Under the pieces are notes generated by a model. That model had not been told where the DNA came from. It saw only the letters and a list, made by a program, of their open reading frames with translations, and made no database searches. The position numbers and the translations under genes were made by a program. Positions 3,303 through 32,000 of a stretch of DNA of 32,000 nucleotides are shown one piece after another (the first letter of the stretch is position 1; each line of letters begins with the position of its first letter). Where the stretch lies: the NCBI GenBank assembly GCA_020160975.1, contig JAIUPJ010000001.1, positions 939,551 through 971,550 on the forward strand. The letters run 5' to 3'. Origin of the DNA: Candidatus Saccharimonadota bacterium. GTDB taxonomy: Bacteria; Patescibacteriota; Saccharimonadia; Saccharimonadales; Saccharimonadaceae.

Positions 3303-3308
3303 ATATGT

Positions 3309-3317
3309 ATTGTATCA
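3309..3317 (-). promoter_or_regulatory. Extended -10 promoter (TGaTACAAT) for pepN, 6 nt from the ATG
   Basis: The minus strand reads TGATACAAT-acatat-ATG. No Shine-Dalgarno sequence lies between them, which implies a leaderless transcript. Confidence 0.45.
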
Positions 3318-3330
3318 GAGAAACACGGGG

Positions 3331-3336
3331 TATACT
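3331..3336 (+). promoter_or_regulatory. -10 box (TATACT) for the nuclease gene, 6 nt from the ATG
   Basis: The plus strand reads TATACT-ggactc-ATG(3343) with no Shine-Dalgarno sequence, which implies a leaderless transcript. Confidence 0.4.
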
Positions 3337-3342
3337 GGACTC

Positions 3343-4077
3343 ATGAAACAACGTCGCCGGCGAGTTCTGGGAGTGATATTGATTGCGATTGCAATCGCGC
3401 TGATGACGGTGAATTCTGGCCAGTCTCAGTTTGGCGCGCCAACAACGTCTACGCGGCCGTCTGGTCCAAACATTACCGATGCGAGCCTGCCGAAAGAGAA
3501 TCCCCCGCAACCAACACCGCTCGCGATCGTCGTGCTGGATACCATCGCCATCAAGGGGCGTGCGCCCAAGACTGATTATCGACGGGTGCAATTTGGTGAC
3601 GGATGGATACTGGTTGGAAACTGCGACACGCGCAACATCATTCTCAACCGCGATCTAACCGATGTAACGCTGACGGGCTGCAAGGTGGCGACAGGCAAGC
3701 TGACCGACCCGTACACAGGTAAGCTGATTGATTTTCAGCGCGGGCCCGAGGGGAGCACGTTGATACAGATTGATCATGTGGTGGCGCTGAGCAACGCTTG
3801 GCAAACCGGTGCGCAGTTGCTGACGCTTCAGCAGCGGATTGCCTTTGCTAATGACCCACTCGAATTGCTGGCGGTTGATGGCAACGCCAATCAAGCAAAG
3901 GGCGATGGTGACGCCGCGACCTGGCTACCGGCAAACAAAGCCTTTCGCTGCCAATACGTCGCACGTCAAATTGCGGTGAAAGCTAAGTATAGTTTGTGGG
4001 TGACACAGGCCGAGAAAGAGGCTATGCAGCGGGTGCTCAGGGAATGTCCGGAGCAGACGGTACCGGGAGTGAGGTAG
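3343..4077 (+). CDS. Secreted DUF1524 / HNH-type endonuclease family protein
   Basis: The start is taken at MKQRRRRVLGVILIAIAIALMTV, which gives a signal or anchor helix. The upstream part of the track ORF would overlap the pepN start. The C-terminal region IDHVVALSNAWQTGAQ...AVDGNANQAKGDGDAATWLP...CQYVARQIAVKAKYSLWVT matches the DUF1524 (GmrSD C-terminal HNH-like) pattern. Confidence 0.85.
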   Translation: MKQRRRRVLGVILIAIAIALMTVNSGQSQFGAPTTSTRPSGPNITDASLPKENPPQPTPLAIVVLDTIAIKGRAPKTDYRRVQFGDGWILVGNCDTRNIILNRDLTDVTLTGCKVATGKLTDPYTGKLIDFQRGPEGSTLIQIDHVVALSNAWQTGAQLLTLQQRIAFANDPLELLAVDGNANQAKGDGDAATWLPANKAFRCQYVARQIAVKAKYSLWVTQAEKEAMQRVLRECPEQTVPGVR

Positions 4078-4785: not shown

Positions 4786-4862
4786 GGATTTATTCGGTTC
4801 TTTTGGATAAAGAGCTAGACTTACCCGTTTTGCAAAAAGGAGACGGCATATAAATTTTTAAT

Positions 4863-4934
4863 CCCAAAATGTCAAAACCCCACCCTCACCACACTGGCGG
4901 AGCGGGGCTCGACGCCGAGTGGGTGAGGGTGGGG
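4863..4934 (-). terminator. Very strong hairpin followed by a T-rich tract on the minus strand
   Basis: The 13-bp stem CCCCACCCTCACC (4878-4890) pairs with GGTGAGGGTGGGG (4922-4934). It is extended by 4892-4899 pairing with 4913-4921. On the minus strand it is followed by TTTTGACATTTTGGG. Confidence 0.6.
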
Positions 4935-4938
4935 TGAA

Positions 4939-5226
4939 TCAGAGGGCTGCTTGATACGCGCTGTCGGACGTCTTGATGAACCAAGGCCTCCAAAGCGGTA
5001 GTAGCGGTAGTTTCCTCAAGACAAGTGTCACTGGGTAGTGGCGGCTGTCAGCTGAGCTTGTCCCTACAGATCCCCACATGTGTCTTTGTCTGCGCTTGTA
5101 GATGAAGTGCACAGCAGGGCTCTTCGAGGTTCCTTTTGTGCGTTCATGCCGCTGCACTTGAGTGATCGTGCAGTTGGAGGCGACGACGACGACTTCCATT
5201 GTGCGAGTGATCACAGCATCTCCCAT
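4939..5226 (-). CDS. Hypothetical small basic protein (95 aa), which may instead be part of a non-coding RNA
   Basis: The ORF sits between a consensus-like promoter (5262-5290) and the strong terminator, with its stop 4 nt before the hairpin. It has no Shine-Dalgarno sequence, an odd W/H/R/C-rich composition and no recognisable family. Confidence 0.2.
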   Translation of the reverse strand: MGDAVITRTMEVVVVASNCTITQVQRHERTKGTSKSPAVHFIYKRRQRHMWGSVGTSSADSRHYPVTLVLRKLPLLPLWRPWFIKTSDSAYQAAL

Positions 5227-5261
5227 GATTGAGTGTCCAAAAACCAAAAACTTCCATTTTA

Positions 5262-5290
5262 ATTATGACAAAACTAACTATATTTGTCAA
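5262..5290 (-). promoter_or_regulatory. Sigma70-like promoter TTGACA-17-CATAAT on the minus strand
   Basis: The reverse complement of 5285-5290 is TTGACA and that of 5262-5267 is CATAAT. The spacer is exactly 17 nt. Confidence 0.5.
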
Positions 5291-5310
5291 GTTTTGCGAT
5301 GTTGTAACAG

Positions 5311-8292
<2,982 letters not shown>

Positions 8293-8301
8293 CAGATGTG
8301 T

Positions 8302-8310
8302 ATTATACCA
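8302..8310 (-). promoter_or_regulatory. Extended -10 (TGgTATAAT) for queA-tgt, 9 nt from the ATG
   Basis: The minus strand reads TGGTATAAT-acacatctg-ATG, so any leader is very short or absent. Confidence 0.45.
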
Positions 8311-8314
8311 GCGA

Positions 8315-8343
8315 TTGACATTTTGCCACTTGTTTGCTATGAT
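8315..8343 (+). promoter_or_regulatory. Sigma70-like promoter TTGACA-17-TATGAT for nusA
   Basis: TTGACA is at 8315-8320, TATGAT at 8338-8343, and the spacer is 17 nt. AAGGAG lies 8 nt before the nusA ATG. Confidence 0.5.
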
Positions 8344-8409
8344 CAATAAGTACAGATCCGGCCGGCAGGTCGGACTTTTTCGTAGAAAATAACTGAAAGG
8401 AGTCTGACA

Positions 8410-9528
8410 ATGGAAGACTTAAACATTAAACAACTCACCCTCGCAGTGCGTACTATCGCAGAGGAAAAGAACCTGCCCGAAGAGACAGTGATGGAAGTCA
8501 TCGAGCAGGCAATTGCGGCTGCATGGCGCCGTGACAATGGTGAGCGCGAGCAGGAAGTGCGCGCCGAGCTAAACGTCAATGACGGTACCGCTAAGGTATA
8601 TGTACAGCGTGAAGTGGTCGAAGATCCGATCAACGACGCGACCGAAATCAGCCTGGCAGACGCCAAAAAGGTCAAAAAAGACGCCAAACTCGAAGATATC
8701 ATCGAGGAAGAGCACACCGTGACGAGCTTCGGCCGTGTAGCGGCACAAACAGCCAAGCAAGTGGTGCTCCAGCGCCTACGCGAAGCTGAGCGCGAAGTAG
8801 TGCTGGTGGAGTTTGAAGACAAAATCGGCACCGTGGTCAACGGTATGGTGCAGCGCGTCGAGCCACGCGTGGTGCGTGTCGAGATCAACAAAGCGGTCGG
8901 TATATTGCCGCAGAGTGAGCAGATTCAGGGTGAATTCTACTCTGTTGGACAGCGTATCAAGGTCTTTATCAAGGATATCGAGCGCGACAACCGTGGCCCA
9001 CAGCTCATCCTCAGCCGTGGTAACGAAGCCTTCGTCGAGTATCTCTTCCGCCAAGAAGTGCCAGAGATGGAGACAGGCGCGGTCGAGATTAAGGGTATCG
9101 CCCGCGAAGCTGGTCGTCGTACTAAATTGGCCGTAGCAAGCACAGTACCTGGTGTTGATCCAGTAGGTACCTTCGTTGGTGGACATGGCACGCGTGTCAA
9201 TGCTGTTATGAATGAAATCGGAGACCAGGAGAAAATCGATATCGTTACTTTTGATGACAATGTCGATACCTACATCCGCAATGCGCTTTCACCGGCTGAA
9301 GTGGTGAAAGTAGAGATTGACGAAGAGGCCAAGCGTGCTAAGGTATTTGTGAGTGAAGACCAGCAATCAATTGCTATTGGTCGTGGTGGCCAAAATGTCC
9401 GCCTGGCAAGCAAACTGACCGGCTACGAACTTGATATTGAGACTGCAGTCGCTAAGCCAGCTGAAAAGAAGCCAAAAAAGAATATCGAAGAAGGCCTCTT
9501 CGCAGCTATTGAAGAGCAAGGCGAGTAG
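8410..9528 (+). CDS. nusA: Transcription termination/antitermination factor NusA
   Basis: The 372-aa ORF has a NusA N-terminal domain, an S1 domain and two KH domains (IAIGRGGQNVRLASKLTGYELDI). Confidence 0.95.
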   Translation: MEDLNIKQLTLAVRTIAEEKNLPEETVMEVIEQAIAAAWRRDNGEREQEVRAELNVNDGTAKVYVQREVVEDPINDATEISLADAKKVKKDAKLEDIIEEEHTVTSFGRVAAQTAKQVVLQRLREAEREVVLVEFEDKIGTVVNGMVQRVEPRVVRVEINKAVGILPQSEQIQGEFYSVGQRIKVFIKDIERDNRGPQLILSRGNEAFVEYLFRQEVPEMETGAVEIKGIAREAGRRTKLAVASTVPGVDPVGTFVGGHGTRVNAVMNEIGDQEKIDIVTFDDNVDTYIRNALSPAEVVKVEIDEEAKRAKVFVSEDQQSIAIGRGGQNVRLASKLTGYELDIETAVAKPAEKKPKKNIEEGLFAAIEEQGE

Positions 9529-9550
9529 TCACTCTTCTGCAAAAAAGAAA

Positions 9551-9574
9551 GCCTCCAGATGGGGGCCTTTTTGC
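9551..9574 (+). terminator. Rho-independent terminator of nusA
   Basis: GCCTCC-agat-GGGGGC forms a stem with one G-U pair on the plus strand and is followed by CTTTTTGC. Confidence 0.6.
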
Positions 9575-9584
9575 TGATATTGAA

Positions 9585-9647
9585 GAGGGCACCCTCTCCA
9601 GAGATTTCTCTCCGGAGGGGTGCCCTCGTGTCGCCAGTGGCGACGAG
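9585..9647 (-). terminator. Two GC-rich hairpins just after the flotillin stop, without a U-tract
   Basis: Region 9585-9627 is a helix of about 20 bp whose single mismatch becomes a G-U pair only on the minus strand. Region 9625-9647 is a 9-bp stem. No clear T-run follows either hairpin. Confidence 0.45.
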
Positions 9648-9652
9648 TTGAG

Positions 9653-11641
9653 TCAGGCCTCGTTGCTCGCTTCCGCAGAGCTCGGGGTCGACTCGGTGGT
9701 GCCTTGCGGCTTGCTGGTCGTGGCCTGAGCCACGAGCAGCTGCAGCAGCTCGAGCAGGTTGCCACCACCACCGCCGCCCGTGATGAGGGTCTGCGGCATG
9801 TACGGCGTCTGGCTCTTGCTCAGTGCATCGACGACGGCCACGGCAGCGGTCTGACCCGCACCGATGGCGTCACGCTGCGCCTGGTATCCAGCCGCCTGGC
9901 CCTCACCGAGGGCTCGGGCGGCGGAGCCGTTGGCTTCACCGATGGCACGGATCTTGGCAGCCTCACCGGCACCGAGCTCCTCCAGGACCTTGCGGTCACC
10001 GGTCGCCTTGGCCACGGCAGCTTCGGCGTTCGCCCTGTTGATCTCGACCGAGACCTGGGCGGCGGCCTTCTGCTGCTGCATGTCAGCCTGACCCTTCATC
10101 GCCTCCATGTCGATGCGCGCGTTCTCGGCGTCCTTCTGGGCGCCGTACGTCTGCTTCTTCTGGTTGGCGATTTCTCGGGTTCTGAGAACCTCGGCGAGGT
10201 CATCGGGAAGTCTGACGTCCTGGATGTAGACGCCGCGCACCTCGACGAAGTACTCGTTGAGGTACTCCTTGATGTACTCGGTGGCCTTCTGCTGAACGCT
10301 GCTGCGGGTCTGGATGAAGTCCGTTGCCGCAAGCTTGGAGAGCGTGTCGCGGAAGTAGTTGCCAACCGCGGCCTGAAGGACCTCGTTCACCAACTTGGCG
10401 ATCGACTCCACCGACCCGATCACCTTGGCGGCGTTCGTGTCGGGGATGTGGATCTGGACTTGCAGTTCGATCGCGAACTCGAACGCGTCGTTCGACTTCG
10501 CAACGATGGTGCTGAGCTCCCTGTCGAGGCCGTGCTCGGACTCGACGTTGTCGGCCCAGTTGAGCTGCAGGATGCTGGTGGGGACGATGATCGGCTGGTA
10601 GATGGTCTGGTTGAGACCCTTCTTGCTGGTGCGGATCACATCCGACCAGATGCCTTCGTGACCGGGTGCCACGATGGATCCGAACTTGTACGTCTCACCG
10701 GACTTGTCCTCAGTCGGCAGGCCGACGTACGCCTTGATGACCGCGACCTGGCCCTGCTCGACCACCAGCATGGGCTGGAGGTCGACCTTGAACAGGAAGG
10801 GGTTGATGGCGTAGTCACCCGAACGCAGCACGTCATGCTGAAGGCCTCGGCGGCCTCCCGCATCCAGGAACGCCTGGGCGTCCTGGTAGTTGTTGTGCAG
10901 TGCGTTGTGGTCGCCGAGCACCGTCTGGATGACCTCATTCGAGGAAGCGTTGGACGCCTCCAACGAGCGGATGTCATCGAAGCTACCGATGCGGCCGGCA
11001 ATCGTTCCCGGCTCGAGCGGCGGACCGTCGAGCGCGGTGAGGATGCCAACCTGGTCGGTGGGGATGGTGACGTAGTGCAGGTCCTTGCTCTGTGCGAGCT
11101 GAACCATCTGCTCGGCGTCACGGTTGACGGGTCGCCCATAGGTACCGTTGACCGTCACCACGATGAAGGCATCGGGGTGGATGGTGTAGGTACCCGGGGT
11201 GAGCACGTGACGCTGGACGCCCTGCTGGCCACCGTTGTCGACGAAGGACTTGACGTCCTGAAAGTTGCCGTACTCGGGCTTGTAGGCCGCGCTCGTCGCT
11301 CCCGTCGGAATCGGTGCTCCCACCTGGGAGATGACGATGCCGAAGGTCTTGTCCGGGATGCTGATGATCGGCACCTTGCGGTTGCTGAACATCGGCCACA
11401 GACGAAGGTGAGGGCCGGTCGCGAGGGCACCTGGCTGGATGCCGTTCTCGCCGTTGAGCGCGATGAAGCCGTTGTTTTCGAGCGACTTCCCGCCGAAGTT
11501 CTTCGTGAGAAAGGCGTTGTAGCCCTCACGTACGAACATGAAGCTCTTCGCGAAGACGAACAGGACGATGAGAACGACCAGTCCGATCACGATGAGCATC
11601 GGTGAGATGCTGATACCAAAGGGCACGAGAGTTCCTTTCAC
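9653..11641 (-). CDS. SPFH (band 7) / flotillin family membrane protein
   Basis: The 662-aa ORF starts at GTG. It has an N-terminal TM helix (MLIVIGLVVLIVLFVFA), an SPFH-type core and a C-terminal Ala/Glu/Gln-rich coiled coil (AQKDAENARIDMEAMKGQADMQQQKAAAQV...AEAAVAKA) typical of flotillins. The gene is about 65-68% GC. Confidence 0.85.
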   Translation of the reverse strand: MKGTLVPFGISISPMLIVIGLVVLIVLFVFAKSFMFVREGYNAFLTKNFGGKSLENNGFIALNGENGIQPGALATGPHLRLWPMFSNRKVPIISIPDKTFGIVISQVGAPIPTGATSAAYKPEYGNFQDVKSFVDNGGQQGVQRHVLTPGTYTIHPDAFIVVTVNGTYGRPVNRDAEQMVQLAQSKDLHYVTIPTDQVGILTALDGPPLEPGTIAGRIGSFDDIRSLEASNASSNEVIQTVLGDHNALHNNYQDAQAFLDAGGRRGLQHDVLRSGDYAINPFLFKVDLQPMLVVEQGQVAVIKAYVGLPTEDKSGETYKFGSIVAPGHEGIWSDVIRTSKKGLNQTIYQPIIVPTSILQLNWADNVESEHGLDRELSTIVAKSNDAFEFAIELQVQIHIPDTNAAKVIGSVESIAKLVNEVLQAAVGNYFRDTLSKLAATDFIQTRSSVQQKATEYIKEYLNEYFVEVRGVYIQDVRLPDDLAEVLRTREIANQKKQTYGAQKDAENARIDMEAMKGQADMQQQKAAAQVSVEINRANAEAAVAKATGDRKVLEELGAGEAAKIRAIGEANGSAARALGEGQAAGYQAQRDAIGAGQTAAVAVVDALSKSQTPYMPQTLITGGGGGGNLLELLQLLVAQATTSKPQGTTESTPSSAEASNEA

Positions 11642-23584: not shown

Positions 23585-23615
23585 CTGTTTACAGTGCGAG
23601 GTATACTAGTTTAGT

Positions 23616-25799
23616 ATGAACCTAGCGACGAGTCTTGACCAGATAAAGGGAGTGGGGCCGAAAACTGCCGAGCAACTGCGCACGGCGGGGCTTCGGACGG
23701 TCGGCGATTTGCTGATGTTCTTACCGATGCGGCACGAGGATTTTACAGGACTTACGACGATTGCTGATCTTAAGCCTGGCAAAGTCACTATAAAGGCACG
23801 GTGTGAGGCGATTTCGACGCGACCGGTGCGCCGTGGCCTACGCCTAACTACCGCGGTATTGGCAGACGACACCGGCAAGCTCAATGCCGTGTGGTTCAAC
23901 CAGCCATATCGTACTCAGCAGCTTGGCGGTAGCAACGATGAATTTTATTTTAGCGGTGCGTTCGAATACAATTACGGCAAATATCAGCTGACAAATCCTA
24001 GTGCGGAGCTGGCAAAAGATTTGCCGGTGCAGGCAGAGCGCCTCGTGCCGGTGTATCACTCGATTCGTGGCCTCAAGAGTCAGGTGGTGCGCAAAGTGCT
24101 CGAGGAACTGCGCCCACTCATGAGTGTGCTGCCCGAAACGCTTCCTGAATCTATCGTGGCATCAGAAAAGCTGATGAGCCGCGCAGATGCTATCGCTACG
24201 ATGCATTTCCCGAAACGACTTGAAGACGTCACCAAGGCGCGCGAGCGGTTGGCGTTTGAGGAGTTGTTTGAGCTACTGCTCGCGAGTCAATTAAATAAGC
24301 AGTCGAACCAAAAGCTCGCTGGGTATCATATTCCGTTTGAGGTGAGTGTTGTCAAAGATTTTGTGTCACAGCTGCCGTTTCAGCTGACGAACGCTCAGCG
24401 AAAAGCCGCCTGGGATGTTGTGCAAGATTTTGAAAAATCCGTACCAATGAACCGGCTACTCCAGGGCGATGTCGGCAGCGGCAAGACTGTTGTTGCCGGG
24501 TTGGCGGCACGACAGGCGGCGAGCCAGGGCTACCAGACGGCTATCATGGCTCCGACTGAAATCCTCGCCACCCAGCATGCCGAGACGCTCGACAGGCTTT
24601 TGGCGCCTTTTGGCGTGAAGGTCGGTCTGTTGATTGGCAGCGTCAAGGGTAAGGCCCGGACGACGCTGTATGAGCAAATTGCGAACGGGAAAGTTGATGT
24701 GGTGGTTGGCACGCACGCACTCATTCAGGACAAGGTCGAGTTTCATAACCTTGGCTTTGTTGTCATTGATGAGCAGCATCGATTTGGAGTCGAGCAGCGG
24801 CAGAAATTGCTCGCAAAGTCGAAAGGGAGCGTCCGTCCATTTACTTCTTCACAATCGGTCAGGCCTGGAGAATCTAGGCCTACGGGCCTGGAATCTCCAG
24901 AGATTGACGCGCGGATCGTCAATGGTTCAGAATTGAACGGACGGACGCCTCACGATGAGCCGGCGCTTGTGCAAGGACTTTTGCCCCACTTACTCGCGAT
25001 GACTGCGACGCCCATTCCGCGTAGCCTTGCACTTACCGTCTATGGCGAGCTGGACATTAGTGTGCTAAATGAGCGCCCGGCCAATCGCTTGCCCATCAAA
25101 ACGCAGATTGTGTCGCCAGTGTCGGCGGCGAAGATCTACGAGCAGGTCGATAAGGAGATTGCAACTGGTCGTCAAGTTTATGTTATTTGCAGCTTGATCG
25201 AGGAAAACCCGGACAATGAGGTAAAAAGTGTACAAGTAGAGTATAAACGGCTCAAAAACAGTGTGTTTGGTCATCGCAAGATCGGCCTGCTGCATGGTAA
25301 GATGAAGCCGACAGAAAAAGAGCAGGTTATGCAGGACTTCAAGGACAAAAAATACGATATCCTTGTCAGCACTACCGTCGTCGAGGTAGGTGTTGACGTG
25401 TCTAACGCTACTGTGATGATCATCGAAAATGCCGATCGGTTTGGCTTGGCGCAGCTGCACCAGCTGCGTGGGCGCGTGGGACGAGCAGAGTACCAGAGTT
25501 ACTGCTATCTGATGATGAGCGGAACAAACAAGCCAAGCGAACGGCTACGCGAAGTTGAGAAAAGTAATGACGGCTTTTACCTCGCTGAAGTTGATATGCA
25601 ACTGCGTGGCCCGGGCGAAATCTATGGTCGCATGCAGAGCGGCGCGCTCAATCTCCAGATTGCGACACTCGCCGACACGGCGCTCATTTCTCGTGCGCAA
25701 AAAGCCGCCAAGCGCTTCATCGAGCACGAAGATATCGGTAGTTATGCTGGTCTGAACGAGCGTGTCCGGTACTATCAGCGCCTGACGACGCTGAATTAG
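23616..25799 (+). CDS. recG: ATP-dependent DNA helicase RecG
   Basis: The ORF has a wedge/OB N-terminal region and the SF2 helicase motifs GDVGSGKT, MAPTEILA, VIDEQHRFG, MTATPIPRSLA, TTVVEVGVDV and QLRGRVGRA. An extra 45 aa or so lie between motifs II and III. Confidence 0.95.
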   Translation: MNLATSLDQIKGVGPKTAEQLRTAGLRTVGDLLMFLPMRHEDFTGLTTIADLKPGKVTIKARCEAISTRPVRRGLRLTTAVLADDTGKLNAVWFNQPYRTQQLGGSNDEFYFSGAFEYNYGKYQLTNPSAELAKDLPVQAERLVPVYHSIRGLKSQVVRKVLEELRPLMSVLPETLPESIVASEKLMSRADAIATMHFPKRLEDVTKARERLAFEELFELLLASQLNKQSNQKLAGYHIPFEVSVVKDFVSQLPFQLTNAQRKAAWDVVQDFEKSVPMNRLLQGDVGSGKTVVAGLAARQAASQGYQTAIMAPTEILATQHAETLDRLLAPFGVKVGLLIGSVKGKARTTLYEQIANGKVDVVVGTHALIQDKVEFHNLGFVVIDEQHRFGVEQRQKLLAKSKGSVRPFTSSQSVRPGESRPTGLESPEIDARIVNGSELNGRTPHDEPALVQGLLPHLLAMTATPIPRSLALTVYGELDISVLNERPANRLPIKTQIVSPVSAAKIYEQVDKEIATGRQVYVICSLIEENPDNEVKSVQVEYKRLKNSVFGHRKIGLLHGKMKPTEKEQVMQDFKDKKYDILVSTTVVEVGVDVSNATVMIIENADRFGLAQLHQLRGRVGRAEYQSYCYLMMSGTNKPSERLREVEKSNDGFYLAEVDMQLRGPGEIYGRMQSGALNLQIATLADTALISRAQKAAKRFIEHEDIGSYAGLNERVRYYQRLTTLN
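24827..24951. repeat. Palindromic (MITE/RPE-like) element inserted in-frame in recG
   Basis: The terminal inverted repeats are GAGCGTCCGTCC (24827-24838) and GGACGGACGCCTC (24939-24951). The internal arms are about 65% self-complementary, with sub-hairpins at 24861-24880 and 24887-24899. Confidence 0.4.
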
Positions 25800-25944
25800 C
25801 CAGTGCAAACGTAATCAGTTTCTGCTAGTATAATACCAATGGAGACTCTAATGTGCCGGCAGGGAAAAGCGCAGCCAGTCCGAGTGGATTTACTCCACTC
25901 CACCGCGCGATGGGAAAAACCGTAGGTTTGTCCTATTTCTATCT

Positions 25945-26751
25945 ATGTATTCTGGCACCACTATTCACGGCAAATCGGGCGACATCATGGGTGTCCACCA
26001 AAAGATCGATCGCGTCGCGCGGCGGCATTTTGGTGTGCTACCGGGTGTGGCAGGTGGTTTTCCTACCATCAAAGAAATTTTGCATTTTGAGGGCAACAAC
26101 GGGCCTGACGGTATCAAGCGCAAGAGCCCGAGCATCGACGAGCCGTGGCATTATGTTGACCCTACAAGACCAGACGACACCGAACTTATGACGATGATTC
26201 TGGATCATCATCACAATCTTGTCGAGGCACTTCAGAGCGGCAACCAGCCACGGGCGGCATTTGAGGCCGCTTGGCTTGCCCACGCCATTGTCGATGGACT
26301 GACACCTGCGCATCACTATCCTCTTGGCGACAAAATTGAGGAGCTATGGGGCAAGCCAAAGGACGAGCGTCTCACGATTCGGGAAAAAAATGTTATCAAA
26401 GGCAAAAATCGCCGCGACACCATTAGCAAGAACTGGCAGTACTGGGGAGCGAAGGGCGTGTTCGTGACGCATGGACTATTTGAGCTAGGTGTCGCAACAA
26501 GCATCAAGACAACGCGTTTTCGCGGCATCGGCCCATCGCATGAATGGCTGAAGCACGCTGACGACAGGGGGCTGGAAAAGGTGTTTAGCGATGCTGTGCA
26601 GCAGATTTTTGCGCTCGACATGTATCATAATTTTTGGCAGAATGGCTGGTCGACCCAGCTCGCACAGCAAACTCGCAAAGAGCTCGTACCAGAGATTATT
26701 CGAGTTGTGTCATACTTTTGGTATCATGCCTATCGCGAGGCAGAGCTATGA
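25945..26751 (+). CDS. His-rich putative metal-dependent hydrolase of the zinc phospholipase C / S1-P1 nuclease superfamily type
   Basis: The 268-aa ORF has the motif AHAIVDGLTPAHH, which fits the H-x3-D-x3-P-x-H metal site of that superfamily, plus EPWHYVDP. No signal peptide was seen. The functional call is tentative. Confidence 0.6.
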   Translation: MYSGTTIHGKSGDIMGVHQKIDRVARRHFGVLPGVAGGFPTIKEILHFEGNNGPDGIKRKSPSIDEPWHYVDPTRPDDTELMTMILDHHHNLVEALQSGNQPRAAFEAAWLAHAIVDGLTPAHHYPLGDKIEELWGKPKDERLTIREKNVIKGKNRRDTISKNWQYWGAKGVFVTHGLFELGVATSIKTTRFRGIGPSHEWLKHADDRGLEKVFSDAVQQIFALDMYHNFWQNGWSTQLAQQTRKELVPEIIRVVSYFWYHAYREAEL

Positions 26752-27308
26752 GCTCAATTCGCGTGATTTCAGGACGCTTCGGTGGGCGCAAGCTCGATGC
26801 GCCAAGCGAGGGCAATACCCGTACCAAACCGATGGGCGAGCGAATCCGCAACGCGCTGTTCAACAGTATCGGTGCAGAGATTCAAGATGCACGGGTGCTC
26901 GATGCGTTTGCTGGCACGGGCTCAGTTGGCATCGAGGCGCTGAGCCGTGGGGCAGAGTTTGTGACATTTGTTGAGCGTGACAATGTAGCGGGCAAAATAC
27001 TCATCAACAATATCGCGGCTCTCGGCTTGAAGGGCGAGACGGAGATTATTCGCACAACAATCAACAATTGGCTCGAGACGTCTCAGCACGAGTTGTACGA
27101 TGTTATTTTCGCCGATCCACCCTATCATGATGTGCAGTTATCCACAGTCAGTAAGCTCTTTGCTCTTCTCAAACCCAATGGGCTTATGGTATTATCTCAT
27201 CCAGGAAGAGGTGAGGTGCCAAATCTAATCAAGCTCGGAATTGTTGTGGTGGACAATCGTAGTTATGGAAATGCCTATCTCACCTTCTTCCGCCGAAGAA
27301 GTGACTAG
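26748..27308 (+). CDS. rsmD: 16S rRNA (guanine966-N2)-methyltransferase RsmD
   Basis: The start is MSSIRVISGRFGGRKL. The SAM-binding site is LDAFAGTGSVGIEALSRGA and the catalytic motif is DPPY. An ATGA start/stop overlap links it to the upstream gene. Confidence 0.9.
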   Translation: MSSIRVISGRFGGRKLDAPSEGNTRTKPMGERIRNALFNSIGAEIQDARVLDAFAGTGSVGIEALSRGAEFVTFVERDNVAGKILINNIAALGLKGETEIIRTTINNWLETSQHELYDVIFADPPYHDVQLSTVSKLFALLKPNGLMVLSHPGRGEVPNLIKLGIVVVDNRSYGNAYLTFFRRRSD

Positions 27309-27328
27309 CACCCTCCTAGGGTGTTTTT
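27309..27328 (+). terminator. Rho-independent terminator of rsmD
   Basis: CACCCT-cct-AGGGTG is followed by TTTTT, directly after the stop codon. Confidence 0.65.
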
Positions 27329-27498
27329 AATTGGGTTAACGACAAGGCAAATAAAAGCCGTCTCGTATATGTCACCATAAAACTTTTATCACCTGAGAAC
27401 TGTACTGTGCGCTCCATAATTTCTCCTTTTCTATTGGTGAGTCCAGTATATCAAAATTCTATTTTTACTCGGCAAAGCTAGTTGCAGGTGAGTGTGTT

Positions 27499-27507
27499 TG
27501 ATATAAT
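27499..27507 (+). promoter_or_regulatory. Extended -10 promoter (TGaTATAAT) for tRNA-Leu
   Basis: TGATATAAT ends 10 nt upstream of the first tRNA nucleotide. Confidence 0.5.
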
Positions 27508-27517
27508 ATGTGTATAC

Positions 27518-27602
27518 GCGGATGTGGTGGAATTGGTAGACACGCATGCCTTAGGAGCATGTGCCTCACGGCGTGAAGGTTCAAGTCCTTTCATCCGCAC
27601 CA
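27518..27602 (+). tRNA. tRNA-Leu (anticodon UAG), class II with a long variable arm and encoded CCA
   Basis: The acceptor stem pairs GCGGATG with CATCCGC and is followed by ACCA. The D-loop is GGAATTGGTAGA. The anticodon stem CATGC/GCATG carries the loop CTTAGGA. A long variable arm is present, and the T-arm is GAAGGTTCAAGTCCTTC. Confidence 0.95.
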
Positions 27603-27712
27603 TGCAAAGAATCGATCGTTTGGTCGGTTTTTTGTTTTGTGTGAATAGAAGTGGCTACTGCTCACGCTTATGCTAAAATATAGGCAATGAGTGTAATACT
27701 ATTGGGGGTTAG

Positions 27713-29338
27713 ATGAATAAGGTTGCGTCCTACTTGCGCGGGCATATTAGCGGCGAGGTAACGACCCGTGACGATGTGCGTGAGGCAATGAGCATCGACG
27801 GTGGCGTGTTGCGGTTGAAGCCAGACATGGTGATTTATCCGCGTAACACCAACGATGTCCGTAAAGTCGCGAGATTTAGCTGGCAACTAGCTGAGAAGGG
27901 GCACGTGTTGCCAGTGACAGTGCGTGGAGCGGGGACTGACGCCACGGGTGCGGCGATCGGCAAAGGCGTCTCGCTCGTCACGACCGCACATATGAATCGC
28001 TTGTTTGAATACGATGCGAAGCAAAAACTAGTTCGTCTACAACCAGGCGTTACAATCGGAGCACTCAACCAAGGGCTGGCGTTGCACGGTGCAAACATTA
28101 TGGCGCTGGTCGGCTCTCACCCCTATGGTACCGTTGGCGGAGCGATTGCGAGCGCCACAACCGGACGGTTGGCGGGCAAGTACCAGACTATTGAGCCAGC
28201 AATTGACCAGCTAGAGGTGGTACTGGCAAATGGCGATGTCCTGCAAACCAAACGTATCAACAAACGCGAGCTCAGTAAAATCAAGGGTGAGCAGAGCTTT
28301 GTGGGCGATATCTACCGTGGGATTGACCGGATTATAGAAGATTATGCCGAGGTCTTGGACACGCTGCGATCAAACGATGCCGTCGGCTATAATACTATCG
28401 CGGATGTGAAACAAAAGGACGGGAGCTTCGACTTGACACCACTGTTTGTGGGTAGCCAAGGCACGCTAGGGATTGTCACTGAAATGATCATGAAAGCGGA
28501 GTTCCGTAGTCTTCACACTGCCGTCGCTGCTTTGACCTTTGACAGCAGTAATGCCGCTCGAGATGCAATCGATGATCTTTGCAAGCTAAGCCCGGCTTTT
28601 GTAGAGTATTTCGATGCACAGCTTTTCGATACAGCGGCGAAGGCTGGTCGTGAGTATGCATTCTATGCTGAGGCAGCGTCTACGCTCACTCCGGCATCAG
28701 TGATTATTGTCGGGTTCGATGATTTTAGCGAACGACACCGTGCAAAACACCTTAAGCGACTTACCAAGCGATGGGGAAAGAGTGAGGGCGTCGTGCTGGC
28801 ATCAGCCGATGGCGACAAGGCAGAGGACATTCTCGCTGCGCTTGATGTTGCTCACTATACGATGTGGCCCGACCAAGCTACTGGCGCCACGCCACGTCTG
28901 TTTGGCGGCTTTCATGTGCCAACTGAGCGACTCGAGGATTTCGCACGCGGTCTCGAGCTACTCGCAGACAAAGAGCACGTCGACCTGCCATTGGCTGGTC
29001 ACGCGTATACAAATACCTACAGCGTGTACCCCACGCTATCTCTCAGCAAAGTTGGTGACAAACAAAAAATCTTTAAGCTGCTTGATGAACTGACAAAACT
29101 TGTGTATGACCACAGTGGCACGATGCTCGCGGAAGGCGGCGAAGGTCGAGTGAAGGCAAAATTTGTCTACAGCCATCTAGACGACAAGCTGGTCCAGATG
29201 TACGACGAGATTCGCAACGTATGCGATCCACGCGGGACGCTGAACCCCGGCGTCAAGCAAGTCAACGAAGTACGACAGCTGGCTGAAATTCTTCGTGACC
29301 ACCACGAGGCAGGCCAAAACGCTCGGTATGGACTGTAG
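27713..29338 (+). CDS. FAD-binding oxidoreductase (FAD_binding_4 / GlcD-like, D-lactate or glycolate oxidase type)
   Basis: The 541-aa ORF has an N-terminal FAD_binding_4 pattern (PDMVIYPRNTNDVRKVARF...VTVRGAGTDATGAAIG). Its C-terminal end is NVCDPRGTLNPG, typical of the family. Confidence 0.85.
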   Translation: MNKVASYLRGHISGEVTTRDDVREAMSIDGGVLRLKPDMVIYPRNTNDVRKVARFSWQLAEKGHVLPVTVRGAGTDATGAAIGKGVSLVTTAHMNRLFEYDAKQKLVRLQPGVTIGALNQGLALHGANIMALVGSHPYGTVGGAIASATTGRLAGKYQTIEPAIDQLEVVLANGDVLQTKRINKRELSKIKGEQSFVGDIYRGIDRIIEDYAEVLDTLRSNDAVGYNTIADVKQKDGSFDLTPLFVGSQGTLGIVTEMIMKAEFRSLHTAVAALTFDSSNAARDAIDDLCKLSPAFVEYFDAQLFDTAAKAGREYAFYAEAASTLTPASVIIVGFDDFSERHRAKHLKRLTKRWGKSEGVVLASADGDKAEDILAALDVAHYTMWPDQATGATPRLFGGFHVPTERLEDFARGLELLADKEHVDLPLAGHAYTNTYSVYPTLSLSKVGDKQKIFKLLDELTKLVYDHSGTMLAEGGEGRVKAKFVYSHLDDKLVQMYDEIRNVCDPRGTLNPGVKQVNEVRQLAEILRDHHEAGQNARYGL

Positions 29339-29350
29339 CAGGCACTCAAG

Positions 29351-29818
29351 CTAGTTCAGAGGAATTGTTGTGCGATTAGTGATACCTAATCGCTTTGCCT
29401 CTCCAGCGTTGATTTCTATCACCGTCCTCGCATCGCTGAAGAGGGGATTCGAAAAGATGGTCTTTGGGTAGCTCGAGGGTTGGGCATCGTGCACAACATA
29501 AATCACACGGTTGTCTTTGTCGAGCCAGAGGATATCGATCGGGTAGCTCATGCCTTTCATCCATATTGTCATCTGCCCTTTGCCGTGAAACAGCATGCCG
29601 TAGCGTGGGGGCAGCGTCGGTACCGCACTGAGGCCAAGGCGCTTTTCCTCATCGGTGCGGGTTTCGAGCAGCGTAAAGTCTTTGCTGCCGATCCGCGCTA
29701 TCAGTCGTGGGTAAGTCGGTAATCTCGGAGTGTTGTCGGTGGGCATAGGACGCACGATTGCCGCTAGTAAGAAAGCTCCGATACTCATCAGCACAACACT
29801 AACCCAAAACCTCAGCAT
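29351..29818 (-). CDS. DUF192 (COG1430) family protein with an N-terminal signal or anchor helix
   Basis: The start is taken at MLRFWVSVVLMSIGAFLLAAIV, with GAAGG upstream. The core MSYPIDILWLDKDNRVIYVVHDAQP fits DUF192. Confidence 0.8.
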   Translation of the reverse strand: MLRFWVSVVLMSIGAFLLAAIVRPMPTDNTPRLPTYPRLIARIGSKDFTLLETRTDEEKRLGLSAVPTLPPRYGMLFHGKGQMTIWMKGMSYPIDILWLDKDNRVIYVVHDAQPSSYPKTIFSNPLFSDARTVIEINAGEAKRLGITNRTTIPLN

Positions 29819-29854
29819 GATGCCTTCTAGTATAGCGTAGTAGGAGGTGATACC

Positions 29855-29880
29855 TAAAAAAGACGAGCATACACTCGTCT
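29855..29880 (-). terminator. Rho-independent terminator on the minus strand, upstream of the DUF192 gene
   Basis: The minus strand reads AGACGAG-tgtatg-CTCGTCT followed by TTTTTT. It ends about 37 nt before the DUF192 start codon. Confidence 0.6.
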
Positions 29881-30153
29881 CTTTACTCTGAAATGGTTCG
29901 GATAGGAGGACTTGGTCGCGGTTACGCCACACCGAAAGTCAAGCAAGTGAGCTTAGCTCATTTGTGAAGTTTCCTTGCAAAGCTACCTCGAGTCACTTCT
30001 CACCTCCACGACGTGTCGATTCGAGTTCTTAAATTGATACCATCGAAAAATTTGAGTACTATGGCGGAAAATCGTTCTAAACGAAACAGAAGCCGGGGAG
30101 GTCGGCACCATGCTCACTACCTATAATTCAGCTTTTAATGCATTCAGTTATAT
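29881..30153 (-). ncRNA. Candidate small RNA or cis-regulatory leader of unassigned class
   Basis: The region lies between the minus-strand promoter (30160-30188) and the terminator (29855-29880). It has no ORF of 60 aa or more in sense. No known RNA class was recognised. Confidence 0.25.
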
Positions 30154-30159
30154 AAAAGC

Positions 30160-30188
30160 ATATATCTCTAGTGTGAATGTATTGACAA
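30160..30188 (-). promoter_or_regulatory. Sigma70-like promoter TTGTCA-17-ATATAT on the minus strand
   Basis: The reverse complement of 30183-30188 is TTGTCA, ATATAT is at 30160-30165, and the spacer is 17 nt. Its -35 overlaps the -35 of the divergent plus-strand promoter. Confidence 0.4.
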
Positions 30189-30210
30189 CCCCAACCATAA
30201 CCATAATAAT
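30182..30210 (+). promoter_or_regulatory. Sigma70-like promoter TTGACA-17-AATAAT for the repeat-protein gene
   Basis: TTGACA is at 30182-30187, AATAAT at 30205-30210, and the spacer is 17 nt. The GGGAG Shine-Dalgarno sequence at 30264-30268 lies 9 nt before the ATG. Confidence 0.5.
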
Positions 30211-30277
30211 GAAAAGCAATTGTTTGATGCGAGCAAACAAAAAGTGAGAGACAACTAAATAGAGGGAGTAGAAGTGC

Positions 30278-32000
30278 ATGACAGCGCTCGCATCCAAGTT
30301 CGGGGTGAATACTAAAAAGCATACACAGGCCAAATTGTGGCAACGCATAGCAACGCTACTGACAGCGTTTGTTCTGATGGGTAGCGCGCTGGCGCAGATC
30401 GCACAGGCGGCGCCAGGTGATTACGTGTGGCAGAAGGCGGAGACGAATCTGATCGGAGACCAGAGCAACTGGTACTCCATCGCTAGCTCCAGCGACGGCA
30501 GCAAGCTCGCCGCGGTCGTGTCGGGCGGCTTCATCTACACCTCATCCGACTCCGGTGCCACCTGGACGGAGCAAACCGCCGCCGGCTCGCGTTACTGGCA
30601 ATCCATCGCTAGCTCCAGCGACGGCACGAAGCTCGCCGCGGTCGAATCAGAGTGGAACGGCACCAACTATGTCGGCTCCGTCTACACCTCATCCGACTCC
30701 GGCGCCACCTGGACGGAGCGCACCGCCGCCGGCTCGCGTAGCTGGTACTCCATCGCCAGCTCCAGCGACGGCACGAAGCTCGCCGCGGTTGACTATGGCG
30801 GCTTCGTCTACACCTCATCCGATTCCGGTGCCACCTGGACGGAGCAAACCGCCGCCGGCTCGCGTTACTGGTACTCCATTGCCAGCTCTAGCGACGGCAG
30901 CAAGCTCGCCGCGGTCGTGTCGGGCGGCTCCGTCTACACCTCATCCGATTCCGGTGCCACCTGGACGGAGCAAACCGCCGCCGGCTCGCGTAGCTGGTAC
31001 TCCATCGCTAGCTCCAGCGACGGCAGCAAGCTCACTGCGGTCGTGTCGTACGGCTCTGTCTACACCTCATCCGACTCTGGCGCCACATGGACGGAGCGCA
31101 CCGCCGCCGGTCCGGGTAGCTGGTACTCCATCGCCAGCTCTAGCGACGGCACGAAGCTCGCCGCGGTCGCCTACGGCGGCTCCCTCTACACCTCATCCGA
31201 TTCTGGTGCTACCTGGACGGAGCGCACCGCCGGCGGCTCGCGTAACTGGCGATCCATCGCTAGCTCCAGCGACGGCACGAAACTCGCCGCGGTCGAGTCG
31301 GGCGGCTCCCTCTACACCTCATCCGATTCTGGTGCTACCTGGACGGAGCGCACCGCCGGCGGCTCGCGTTACTGGTCCTCCATCGCCAGCTCCAGCGACG
31401 GCAGCAAGCTCGCCGCGGTCGTTTTGGGCGGCTCCGTCTACACCTCATCCGACTCTGGCGCCACCTGGACGGAGCGCACCGCCGCCGGCTCGCGTTACTG
31501 GTCCTCCATCGCCAGCTCCAGCGACGGCAGCAAGCTCGCGGCGGTCGAATCGGGCGGCTCCGTCTACACCTCATCCGACTCCGGCGCCACCTGGACGGAG
31601 CGCACCGCCGCCGGCTCGCGTAACTGGTCCTCCATCGCCAGCTCTAGCGACGGCAGTAAGCTGGTCGCGGCGGTCGCCTACGGCGGCTCCCTCTACACCT
31701 CATCCGATTCTGGTGTTACCTGGACGGAGCGCACCGCCGCCGGCTCACGTGACTGGTACTCCATCGCCAGCTCCAGCGACGGCAGCAAGCTCGCCGCGGT
31801 CGTTTGGGGCGGCTCCGTCTACACTTCGTCCGATTCCGGCGCCACTTGGACGGAGCAAACCGTCGCCGGCTCGCGTGACTGGTACTCCATCGCCAGCTCC
31901 AGCGACGGCAGCAAGCTCGCCGCGGTCGTTTGGGGCGGCTCCGTCTACACTTCGTCCGATTCCGGCGCCACTTGGACGGAGCAAACCGTCGCCGGCTCGC
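30278..32000 (+). CDS. Secreted BNR/Asp-box tandem-repeat protein (beta-propeller type), 3' end outside the window
   Basis: The ATG at 30278 follows an SD sequence. The signal peptide is KLWQRIATLLTAFVLMGSALAQIAQA-AP. It is followed by at least 12 units of W(Y/S)SIASSSDG(S/T)KLAAV..GGS(V/L)YTSSDSGATWTE(Q/R)TAAGSR(Y/S/N/D), each with a canonical SxDxGxTW Asp-box. The ORF is absent from the track because it has no in-window stop. Confidence 0.85.
   Translation, partial: MTALASKFGVNTKKHTQAKLWQRIATLLTAFVLMGSALAQIAQAAPGDYVWQKAETNLIGDQSNWYSIASSSDGSKLAAVVSGGFIYTSSDSGATWTEQTAAGSRYWQSIASSSDGTKLAAVESEWNGTNYVGSVYTSSDSGATWTERTAAGSRSWYSIASSSDGTKLAAVDYGGFVYTSSDSGATWTEQTAAGSRYWYSIASSSDGSKLAAVVSGGSVYTSSDSGATWTEQTAAGSRSWYSIASSSDGSKLTAVVSYGSVYTSSDSGATWTERTAAGPGSWYSIASSSDGTKLAAVAYGGSLYTSSDSGATWTERTAGGSRNWRSIASSSDGTKLAAVESGGSLYTSSDSGATWTERTAGGSRYWSSIASSSDGSKLAAVVLGGSVYTSSDSGATWTERTAAGSRYWSSIASSSDGSKLAAVESGGSVYTSSDSGATWTERTAAGSRNWSSIASSSDGSKLVAAVAYGGSLYTSSDSGVTWTERTAAGSRDWYSIASSSDGSKLAAVVWGGSVYTSSDSGATWTEQTVAGSRDWYSIASSSDGSKLAAVVWGGSVYTSSDSGATWTEQTVAGS
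30470..32000 (+). repeat. Tandem coding repeat with a 126-bp (42-aa) unit, at least 12 copies
   Basis: Unit starts (TGG codons) are at 30470, 30596, 30743, 30869, 30995, 31121, 31247, 31373, 31499, 31625, 31754 and 31880. Unit 2 is 147 bp and unit 10 is 129 bp. Segments 31751-31876 and 31877-32000 are identical. Confidence 0.95.

Follow-up and report, generated by a model that had tools for sequence, protein, structure and literature searches.

The stretch of DNA analysed here, a window of 32,000 nucleotides from contig JAIUPJ010000001.1 of a Candidatus Saccharimonadota bacterium (assembly GCA_020160975.1, positions 939,551 to 971,550), ends inside a plus-strand gene that starts with an ATG at position 30278 and encodes a tandem array of Asp-box repeats, each predicted to form one blade of a beta-propeller. 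We favour, with moderate confidence, the reading that this propeller gene codes for a Saccharibacterium surface protein, namely a sortase-anchored, non-enzymatic Asp-box propeller that would bind a partner surface or polymer. According to this model the missing 3' end would add about two blades, a beta-sandwich stalk of ~165 amino acids (aa), an LAxTG motif, a membrane helix and a basic tail; a sortase would link the protein covalently to the cell wall with the propellers held outward, and the variable top face of the propellers would bind a ligand on the host cell or in the floc matrix. The array would grow and shrink through unequal recombination between its 126-bp units, and the cassette would be exchanged as a whole, from promoter to terminator, between co-resident Saccharibacteria.

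The reading frame is open for 574 codons up to the end of the window, which would cover the 5' two-thirds of the gene (features are collected in Table 1). The motif W.SIASSSDG delimits 12 units, the first at 30470, and S.D.G.[TS]W likewise gave 12 matches, spaced by 42 aa apart from two longer intervals of 49 and 43 aa. These belong to unit 2, which contains a 7-aa insertion, and unit 10, with 1 additional aa; nine units have the standard 42 aa, and the window end truncates unit 12 at residue 40. All units contain an Asp-box, SSDSGATW (SSDSGVTW in unit 10), as well as a half-box, SSSDGSKL or SSSDGTKL, and Tandem Repeats Finder reported a period of 126 with 10.5 copies, 89% matches and zero indels over 30673-32000. 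An earlier reading of the window from its sequence only (the sequence-only reading) had proposed such an array with an Asp-box and a half-box in every 126-bp unit, and this was borne out with at least 12 units.

The same reading had called the units near-identical, which was overstated: between-unit DNA identity is 80-95% (mean 88%, synonymous difference 0.23) and between-blade protein identity has a median of 83% (range 76-93%, 11 units). Units 11 and 12 are the sole exact copies in the array, and this pair reflects either a very recent duplication or a loop in the assembly. Concerted evolution or recent expansion, which had also been suggested, holds in part, as most units of the window are closest to other window units and unit 11 equals unit 12, whereas the synonymous difference and the positional counterparts that some units (e.g. 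the 49-aa unit) have in other alleles speak against it. The full-length protein of the window allele is absent from the protein database, the best matches being 82% identical over 44% of the query, and no database protein was found that joins this N-terminus to at least 12 blades. The window allele is the longest found in its orthologous group.

Pfam searches with the propeller models named by the sequence-only reading as a check gave scores above cutoff for BNR_6 (61.1 bits, cutoff 27), BNR_3 (57.6 bits, cutoff 27) and PSII_BNR, and no match for PF13088, the sialidase model. Among solved structures, Ycf48 proteins are the closest in sequence (E = 1.6e-8). An AlphaFold model of the 574 residues, based on a 62-sequence alignment, had a predicted local distance difference test score (pLDDT) of 90.5 and a predicted template modelling score (pTM) of 0.74, and DSSP assigned four strands to each unit of the model, with SSDSGATW located between strands 3 and 4. 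Foldseek returned xyloglucanases of glycoside hydrolase family 74 (GH74) as top matches (E 8e-25 to 1e-20, TM score up to 0.68, identity 14-19%), and other two-propeller proteins ranked high too, including the 'highly repetitive propeller' 2ymu. PDB entries 8pra and 8prs ('Cell surface protein', nvBagel4) had appeared as weak sequence matches (E = 1e-3), did not recur with a 4-blade query and were dropped. Motif spacing, the four-stranded blades of the predicted structure and the fold similarity to solved propellers together mark the window protein as an Asp-box propeller, in agreement with the earlier proposal of one blade per unit in a tandem beta-propeller. The confidence of the model shows a single internal dip, exactly at the junction of units 7 and 8, and we interpret the array as a full propeller of 7 blades and the beginning, five blades or more, of a second. 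If the second propeller is also 7-bladed, about two more units would lie past the window end.

We also modelled a complete orthologue, P0020, which gave a closed 6-blade propeller (Pizza6S, TMt 0.85, root mean square deviation 2.6 Å) followed by a beta-sandwich and a C-terminal helix, and matched Ycf48 by Foldseek with E = 1e-12. In this model the N-terminal YAWQK forms a strand, and residues 49-53 are in strand conformation. They fall into a segment between signal peptide and first unit (residues 45-64) that has low confidence in the truncated window model and resembles the end of a blade, making it a possible 'velcro' strand that closes the propeller.

Alignment of the 11 alignable units showed that 26 of the 42 positions are invariant and that positions 2, 17, 18, 19, 35 and 42 are the most variable; the insertion in unit 2 is located at positions 18-19 as well. 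In the strand order of the model, positions 17-19 correspond to loop 2-3 and positions 35-42 together with position 2 to loop 4-1, while blade cores and Asp-box hairpins are nearly invariant. The ratio of non-synonymous to synonymous differences (pN/pS) is ~1.0 at the six variable positions versus 0.18 elsewhere; these positions were picked after seeing the data, so that the contrast describes a pattern and is no proof of positive selection. In Asp-box propellers the Asp-box has a structural role and is invariably located in the hairpin between strands 3 and 4, the bottom face is conserved, and in the characterised Asp-box glycosidases it is the variable top face, above all loop 2-3, that bears the ligand-binding and catalytic residues (Quistgaard and Thirup, PMC2716378). 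From the position of the variable loops in the model and this survey we infer that the variable positions map to the top, i.e. the binding, face, and that the array is probably a non-enzymatic binding head, adhesin or lectin-like, whose ligand would be located on the host cell or in the floc matrix.

Evidence for surface display comes from both ends of the protein. The N-terminus looks like a Sec signal peptide, AlphaFold places a helix at residues 15-42 within it, and orthologues are 85-91% identical to the propeller protein across the first 80 residues. In orthologues with this N-terminus the blades are followed by a domain of ~165 aa, an LAxTG motif, a hydrophobic segment and a basic tail, the C-termini reading GGSLANTG, LAETG or LASTG, then hydrophobic residues and RKSVKVPKR. 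This architecture recurs in the same-locus allele of the closest relative found, L029 (LASTG...RKIAKVPKR), and most relatives bearing the C-terminal stalk domain carry the LAxTG signal. No Pfam family matched the ~165-aa stalk; it is a beta-sandwich in the model of P0020, and the whole-model Foldseek search with this orthologue was dominated by the propeller. As LAxTG, hydrophobic segment and basic tail are the hallmarks by which we read the orthologues as sortase substrates, the window protein is probably sortase-anchored on the cell wall with its propellers pointing outward, which supports the cell-surface location proposed earlier. Kantor et al. (2013, PMC3812714) describe sortases, predicted sorted proteins and beta-propeller surface proteins for TM7.

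In P0129 a Kelch propeller sits on the same stalk and anchor; the architecture is therefore modular, with propeller heads that can be exchanged on a stalk and anchor held in common. On the contig that encodes P0020 (locus L022), a 1168-aa DUF285/Kelch protein is located at 6054-9560, and the DNA of its 3' end (9273-9718) resembles the stalk region of the propeller gene. A second propeller-gene copy runs off the end of this contig (18697-19046), type I restriction, GmrSD and NYN genes are located upstream, and the region has the look of a variable island with genes for surface and defence functions. Indirect support for a binding head comes from two further relatives: P0004 joins a homologous repeat array to the N-terminus of a prepilin, and the gene for the 14-blade homologue P0003 is adjoined by a pilin-like gene. 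TM7x, for its part, depends on a minor pilin with a beta-propeller to bind its host (PMC11623550).

The upstream region of the gene is conserved between loci that otherwise differ. The upstream block that the window shares with L021, L022, L025 and L026 is preceded by flanks that are unrelated between the window and these loci. L021 (9690-9770), L022 (9710-9790), L025 and L026 have ~75 bp more of upstream homology in common, from which the window diverges upstream of ~30051, and in L021 this extra block begins ~20 bp after a tRNA-Val gene. The predicted promoter and the 5' untranslated region (UTR) are nearly invariant in seven related loci, the -35 box and the spacer being invariant, consistent with the strong promoter proposed by the sequence-only reading. 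A small hairpin in the 5' UTR may stabilise the mRNA or have a regulatory role. An Rfam scan of 29300-30500 gave nothing beyond a chance-level match to MicX (E = 0.96), arguing against a known riboswitch or small RNA upstream of the gene.

The coding sequence is conserved in a similar manner. Its 152-nt non-repeat 5' part is 93-97% identical in all seven other loci, and the same-species L029 (94.1%) is no closer to the window than L021 (96.7%), whose FAD-linked oxidase shares 40% protein identity; in L024 the 5' part is 94.7% identical, RsmD being 51% identical. At the other end, L029 and L021 show 93.6% DNA identity in the C-terminal domain and remain similar until ~160 bp after the stop codon. 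Overall, the cassette is 91-97% identical at the DNA level between loci, and the flanks of 8-10 kb share a tRNA match only, or nothing. With conservation so much higher in the cassette than around it, the data are most simply read as lateral exchange, or recombination, of the complete cassette within the Saccharibacteria. No relative was found on viral contigs, so that there is no evidence for a phage as carrier.

The repeats differ from their surroundings in composition, with a GC content of 0.674 and a GC content at third codon positions (GC3) of 0.849, as compared to 0.48-0.54 and 0.47-0.60, respectively, in neighbouring genes. The description of a GC-rich array with restricted codon usage was broadly right: GCC, TCC, AGC, GGC and ACC dominate, and GCG, ACG, TCG, TCA and CGT are fixed at particular positions. 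The contrast had been taken to allow a foreign origin, and we therefore compared it with that of homologues. The repeats have a GC3 of 0.87 in L021 and 0.76 in L022 at a locus GC of 0.47-0.48, and across four relatives, the 65%-identical P0003 among them, the whole gene has a GC3 of 0.68-0.74 and flanks of 0.45-0.50 GC. We rejected a recent import from a high-GC donor, as all homologues examined share the GC excess, including the 65%-identical one in a genome of 48% GC; an excess shared by the gene family in every host genome examined marks no such import. What stands of the foreign origin is thus the lateral exchange of the cassette. The GC3 excess could result from GC-biased gene conversion, given an array prone to recombination. 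More speculatively, the gene may be a self-contained circulating 'adhesin cassette' with a promoter and 5' UTR of its own, extending from ~230-310 bp upstream of the start to ~160 bp past the stop codon, that is swapped between co-resident Saccharibacteria. Unequal recombination would reshape its top-face loops and change its number of blades (3 to 14), retuning the host or surface bound; the GC3 excess would then be a by-product of frequent recombination through GC-biased gene conversion and not the signature of a donor. We regard this extended scenario as possible, and hold it with clearly less confidence than the surface-protein reading itself.

A protein of variable length had been anticipated, and the data agree with this in part. 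Blade number ranges from 3 to 14 among relatives with the stalk domain and LAxTG, and L029 has 3 blades at the same locus, with flanks ~97.8% identical to those of the window. A 3-blade propeller cannot close on its own; 6, 7 and 14 are structurally sensible numbers. A metagenome scan with the conserved N-terminus yielded four loci, three of which break or frameshift in the array, the fourth being a 4-blade allele on a 2.5-kb contig, and P0122 begins with a repeat read in the wrong frame. Because assemblies of relatives break or frameshift in the array, low blade counts are perhaps collapse artefacts. Real variation in blade number is likely, its extent being uncertain.

These uncertainties lend some weight to an alternative in which the protein is a fixed structural component of the envelope, S-layer-like or a spacer, with no specific ligand and with repeat-number differences that stem from assembly. 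A strong and conserved promoter-like site and extremely conserved scaffold residues would fit such a role, as would the frequency with which relatives' assemblies end or frameshift in the array, rendering counts of 3-5 blades suspect. Nevertheless, we consider it unlikely, as complete open reading frames (ORFs) with 6, 7 and 14 blades, all of them foldable numbers, are found on long contigs, the L029 allele differs (~94% in the 5' part versus 97.8% in the flanks) and carries a 5' deletion, and most of the variation falls on the face by which propellers bind.

The artefact might instead reside in the window, its long array being in part an over-expansion or graph loop and the real gene encoding one propeller of 6-7 blades. 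Units 1-11, however, all differ from each other (80-95% identity) and include two distinct in-frame insertions, and the frame is open for 1.7 kb, unlike in a collapsed or looped assembly; moreover, 14-blade relatives exist, P0003 having been recovered identically on five contigs. We thus hold this explanation to be improbable, even though an exact tandem duplicate of 126 bp makes up the final 253 bases of the window, all close orthologues found have at most 7 blades and the database lacks, as described above, a protein of this length with this N-terminus.

Least probable of all is a secreted or surface glycoside hydrolase, GH74-like or GH33 sialidase-like, that degrades host or matrix polysaccharide in a cleft between the propellers: GH74 xyloglucanases head the Foldseek list, the NCBIfam model 'F510_1955 family glycosylhydrolase' scores 122 bits and most characterised Asp-box propellers are glycosidases (PMC2716378), but this score is below the cutoff of 175, no glycoside hydrolase model reaches its cutoff, GH74 identity is just 14-19%, and the window protein has neither a PF13088 match nor a FRIP/RIP motif. 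GH33 enzymes are marked by a FRIP motif, an Arg triad and Tyr/Glu, GH74 enzymes by two catalytic Asp located in the cleft between the propellers. With respect to GH74 and GH33 membership, no family model scored above cutoff and no blade-specific acidic residue was found, the only recurring acidic residues being the structural Asp of Asp-box and half-box and E34. As the blades are 76-93% identical to each other, none of them is specialised for catalytic residues, and a GH74-type cleft would be impossible in orthologues with a single 6-blade propeller. Membership in the Ycf48/HCF136 family was not supported either, the equivalog model NF010237 scoring 33.8 bits versus a cutoff of 326 for a protein with at least 12 blades in a Saccharibacterium host.

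Several points weigh against the reading as a wall-anchored binding protein. The binding function is deduced solely from architecture, and the best structural matches are enzymes. The split into 7 and 5 blades builds on the confidence dip and the fold matches, not on coordinates, and the signal peptide was assigned by eye. Stalk and sortase signal of the window allele would lie past the window end and are transferred from orthologues, and no sortase gene is present in the 32-kb window. Finally, the blade counts of relatives come mostly from short-read assemblies, so that length variation is possibly largely artefactual, and the exact duplicate at the window end is possibly an assembly loop. 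Weighing these points against the evidence above, the sortase-anchored, non-enzymatic Asp-box propeller is the explanation that we prefer.

The gene order TyrRS-(PGM)-RecG-hypothetical protein-RsmD-FAD oxidase of the window is common to 20 genome loci, nearly all labelled Saccharibacteria or Saccharimonas, which identifies the host as a Saccharibacterium. The host is a TM7 wastewater lineage near Ca. Saccharimonas. Besides these genes the window encodes tRNA-Leu and a DUF192 protein, and the remainder is housekeeping: M1 aminopeptidase, TGT, QueA, NusA, an SPFH protein, a Clp ATPase, RadA and a class A penicillin-binding protein. Searching GTDB species representatives with the FAD-linked oxidase yielded the 20 Saccharibacteria loci (best identity 75%), in none of which a BNR gene was located within 10 kb downstream; several of these contigs end just past the oxidase. 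An ORF with a GmrSD_C restriction-endonuclease domain is located amid the housekeeping genes (3259-4077). At 9620-11641, a region of 63% GC, two long ORFs of 661 and 662 aa mirror each other on opposite strands. The one on the minus strand encodes an SPFH/Band 7 domain; its plus-strand counterpart gave no Pfam match, is rich in Leu, Arg, Gly, Val and Asp and looks like the antisense reading of a GC-rich gene.

The closest relative found, L029 (GCA_020428225.1), shares 97.7-97.9% identity with the window over 23602-29874, its genes following the order of the window as far as DUF192. There, two 9-bp direct repeats of the window are joined (L029 8010-8030) and the 443-452 bp between them are deleted, so that promoter, 5' UTR and codons 1-13 of the propeller gene are lost. 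In L029 a GTG immediately adjacent to AGGAGG is annotated as the start codon, and this allele may be poorly expressed or decaying. Judged from L029, a Ser_hydrolase gene on the opposite strand is predicted to follow the propeller gene downstream. L029 also has an extra segment of ~714 bp between RsmD and the FAD-linked oxidase (4810-5522, encoding a TM2/Lipoprotein_Ltp protein) that is absent at window position 27368/27369, a site close to tRNA-Leu (27518-27602). A terminator-like hairpin, AGACGAGCATACACTCGTCT, is found at 29861-29880, inside the 5' part of the longest DUF192 ORF (29351-29932, minus strand). As L029 annotates DUF192 as 155 aa, its start is probably the ATG near 29818, rendering the hairpin intergenic.

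Table 1. Features of the propeller gene and its upstream region, in coordinates of the window
Feature	Position	Strand	Basis and remarks
Left 9-bp direct repeat AGCATACAC	29866..29874	+	Bounds the L029 deletion
Conserved upstream block (promoter and 5' UTR)	30051..30277	+	blastn, 80-94% identity to L021, L022, L025 and L026; homology begins at window 30051-30065
Sigma-70-like promoter TTGACA-17 nt-AATAAT	30182..30210	+	11/12 consensus positions; predicted by consensus match alone
Small hairpin TTGTTTG / CAAACAA (7 bp)	30220..30240	+	5' UTR; read by eye; kept in 7/7 aligned loci
Ribosome-binding site GAGGGAG	30262..30268	+	9 nt before ATG; GGAG invariant in 7 loci, flanking purines vary in L022
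Signal-peptide-like N-terminus	30278..30409	+	Residues 1-44: basic n-region, hydrophobic IATLLTAFVLMGSAL, then AQA|AP; from translation
Right 9-bp direct repeat AGCATACAC	30317..30325	+	In codons 14-16 of the propeller gene
Blade-strand-like segment	30410..30469	+	Residues 45-64 (APGDYVWQKAETNLIGDQSN); by eye like DSGATWTEQTAAGSRN, the fourth strand and linker of a blade
Twelve Asp-box blade units	30470..32000	+	126 bp / 42 aa, with insertions in units 2 and 10 and unit 12 truncated; motif count, Tandem Repeats Finder, Pfam BNR_6, AlphaFold
Exact 126-bp tandem duplication, units 11 and 12	31748..32000	+	Offset-126 comparison: zero mismatches from 31748 on; reaches window end

Saccharibacteria are tiny episymbionts that live attached to other bacteria, and to our knowledge little is known of their host recognition apart from type IV pili. 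As a putative wall-anchored propeller behind a strong and conserved promoter-like site, the protein makes a reasonable candidate for a factor that binds to host or matrix, and the window allele is of interest as the longest of its orthologous group, for the apparent lateral exchange of its cassette and for its location at a strain-variable locus. With blades that are 83% identical, the array is also a natural example of a propeller caught in the midst of amplification. As short-read assemblies break or collapse in such genes, catalogues of metagenome-assembled genomes probably under-report them.

Among known systems, the array resembles the highly repetitive Asp-box propellers surveyed by Pereira and Lupas (2022, PMC9218822), defined by a median blade identity above 60%, a threshold exceeded by the blades of the window. 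Like these, it has blades amplified from one unit, a surplus over one propeller, a predicted tandem split and a number of blades that is not fixed among relatives. The survey mentions neither Saccharibacteria nor Patescibacteria, and the window array differs from its propellers in being part of a sortase-anchored architecture, as judged from orthologues, and in that the gene appears to act as a laterally exchanged cassette. The GH74 enzymes (PDB 6p2l, 6mgj, 2cn3), which form two 7-bladed propellers from an uninterrupted Asp-box stretch ('type 3', Quistgaard and Thirup 2009, PMC2716378), are the best structural match and share the blade topology, the Asp-box in the strand 3-4 hairpin and the tandem propeller. 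In contrast to GH74, the window protein has near-uniform blades without specialised catalytic residues, low identity and no glycoside hydrolase model at cutoff, and a stalk with cell-wall anchor, known from the orthologues, would take the place of the GH74 carbohydrate-binding module. The photosystem II assembly factor Ycf48/HCF136 (PDB 2xbg, 5ojr) is the closest solved sequence, likewise of Asp-box type with one blade per ~42-45 residues; it has 7 blades, whereas the window protein has at least 12, is encoded by a non-photosynthetic host and is probably wall-anchored.

With the sortase-anchored proteins of monoderms (LPXTG/LAxTG) and the sorted proteins of TM7 (PMC3812714) the protein shares a signal-peptide-like N-terminus and, in the orthologues, LAxTG, helix and basic tail. 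It differs from classical MSCRAMM adhesins in that its passenger is an Asp-box propeller array instead of Ig-like or repeat stalks, the anchor of the window allele being expected past the window end. PilX2 of Nanosynbacter lyticus TM7x, a 7-bladed RCC1 minor pilin needed for host binding (PMC11623550), is likewise a surface beta-propeller of a Saccharibacterium; the window protein belongs to the Asp-box and not to the RCC1 lineage and would be displayed by sortase and not by a type IV pilus. The protein belongs to known kinds, the recently amplified Asp-box propellers and, probably, the sortase-anchored surface proteins of TM7, and involves no new mechanism.

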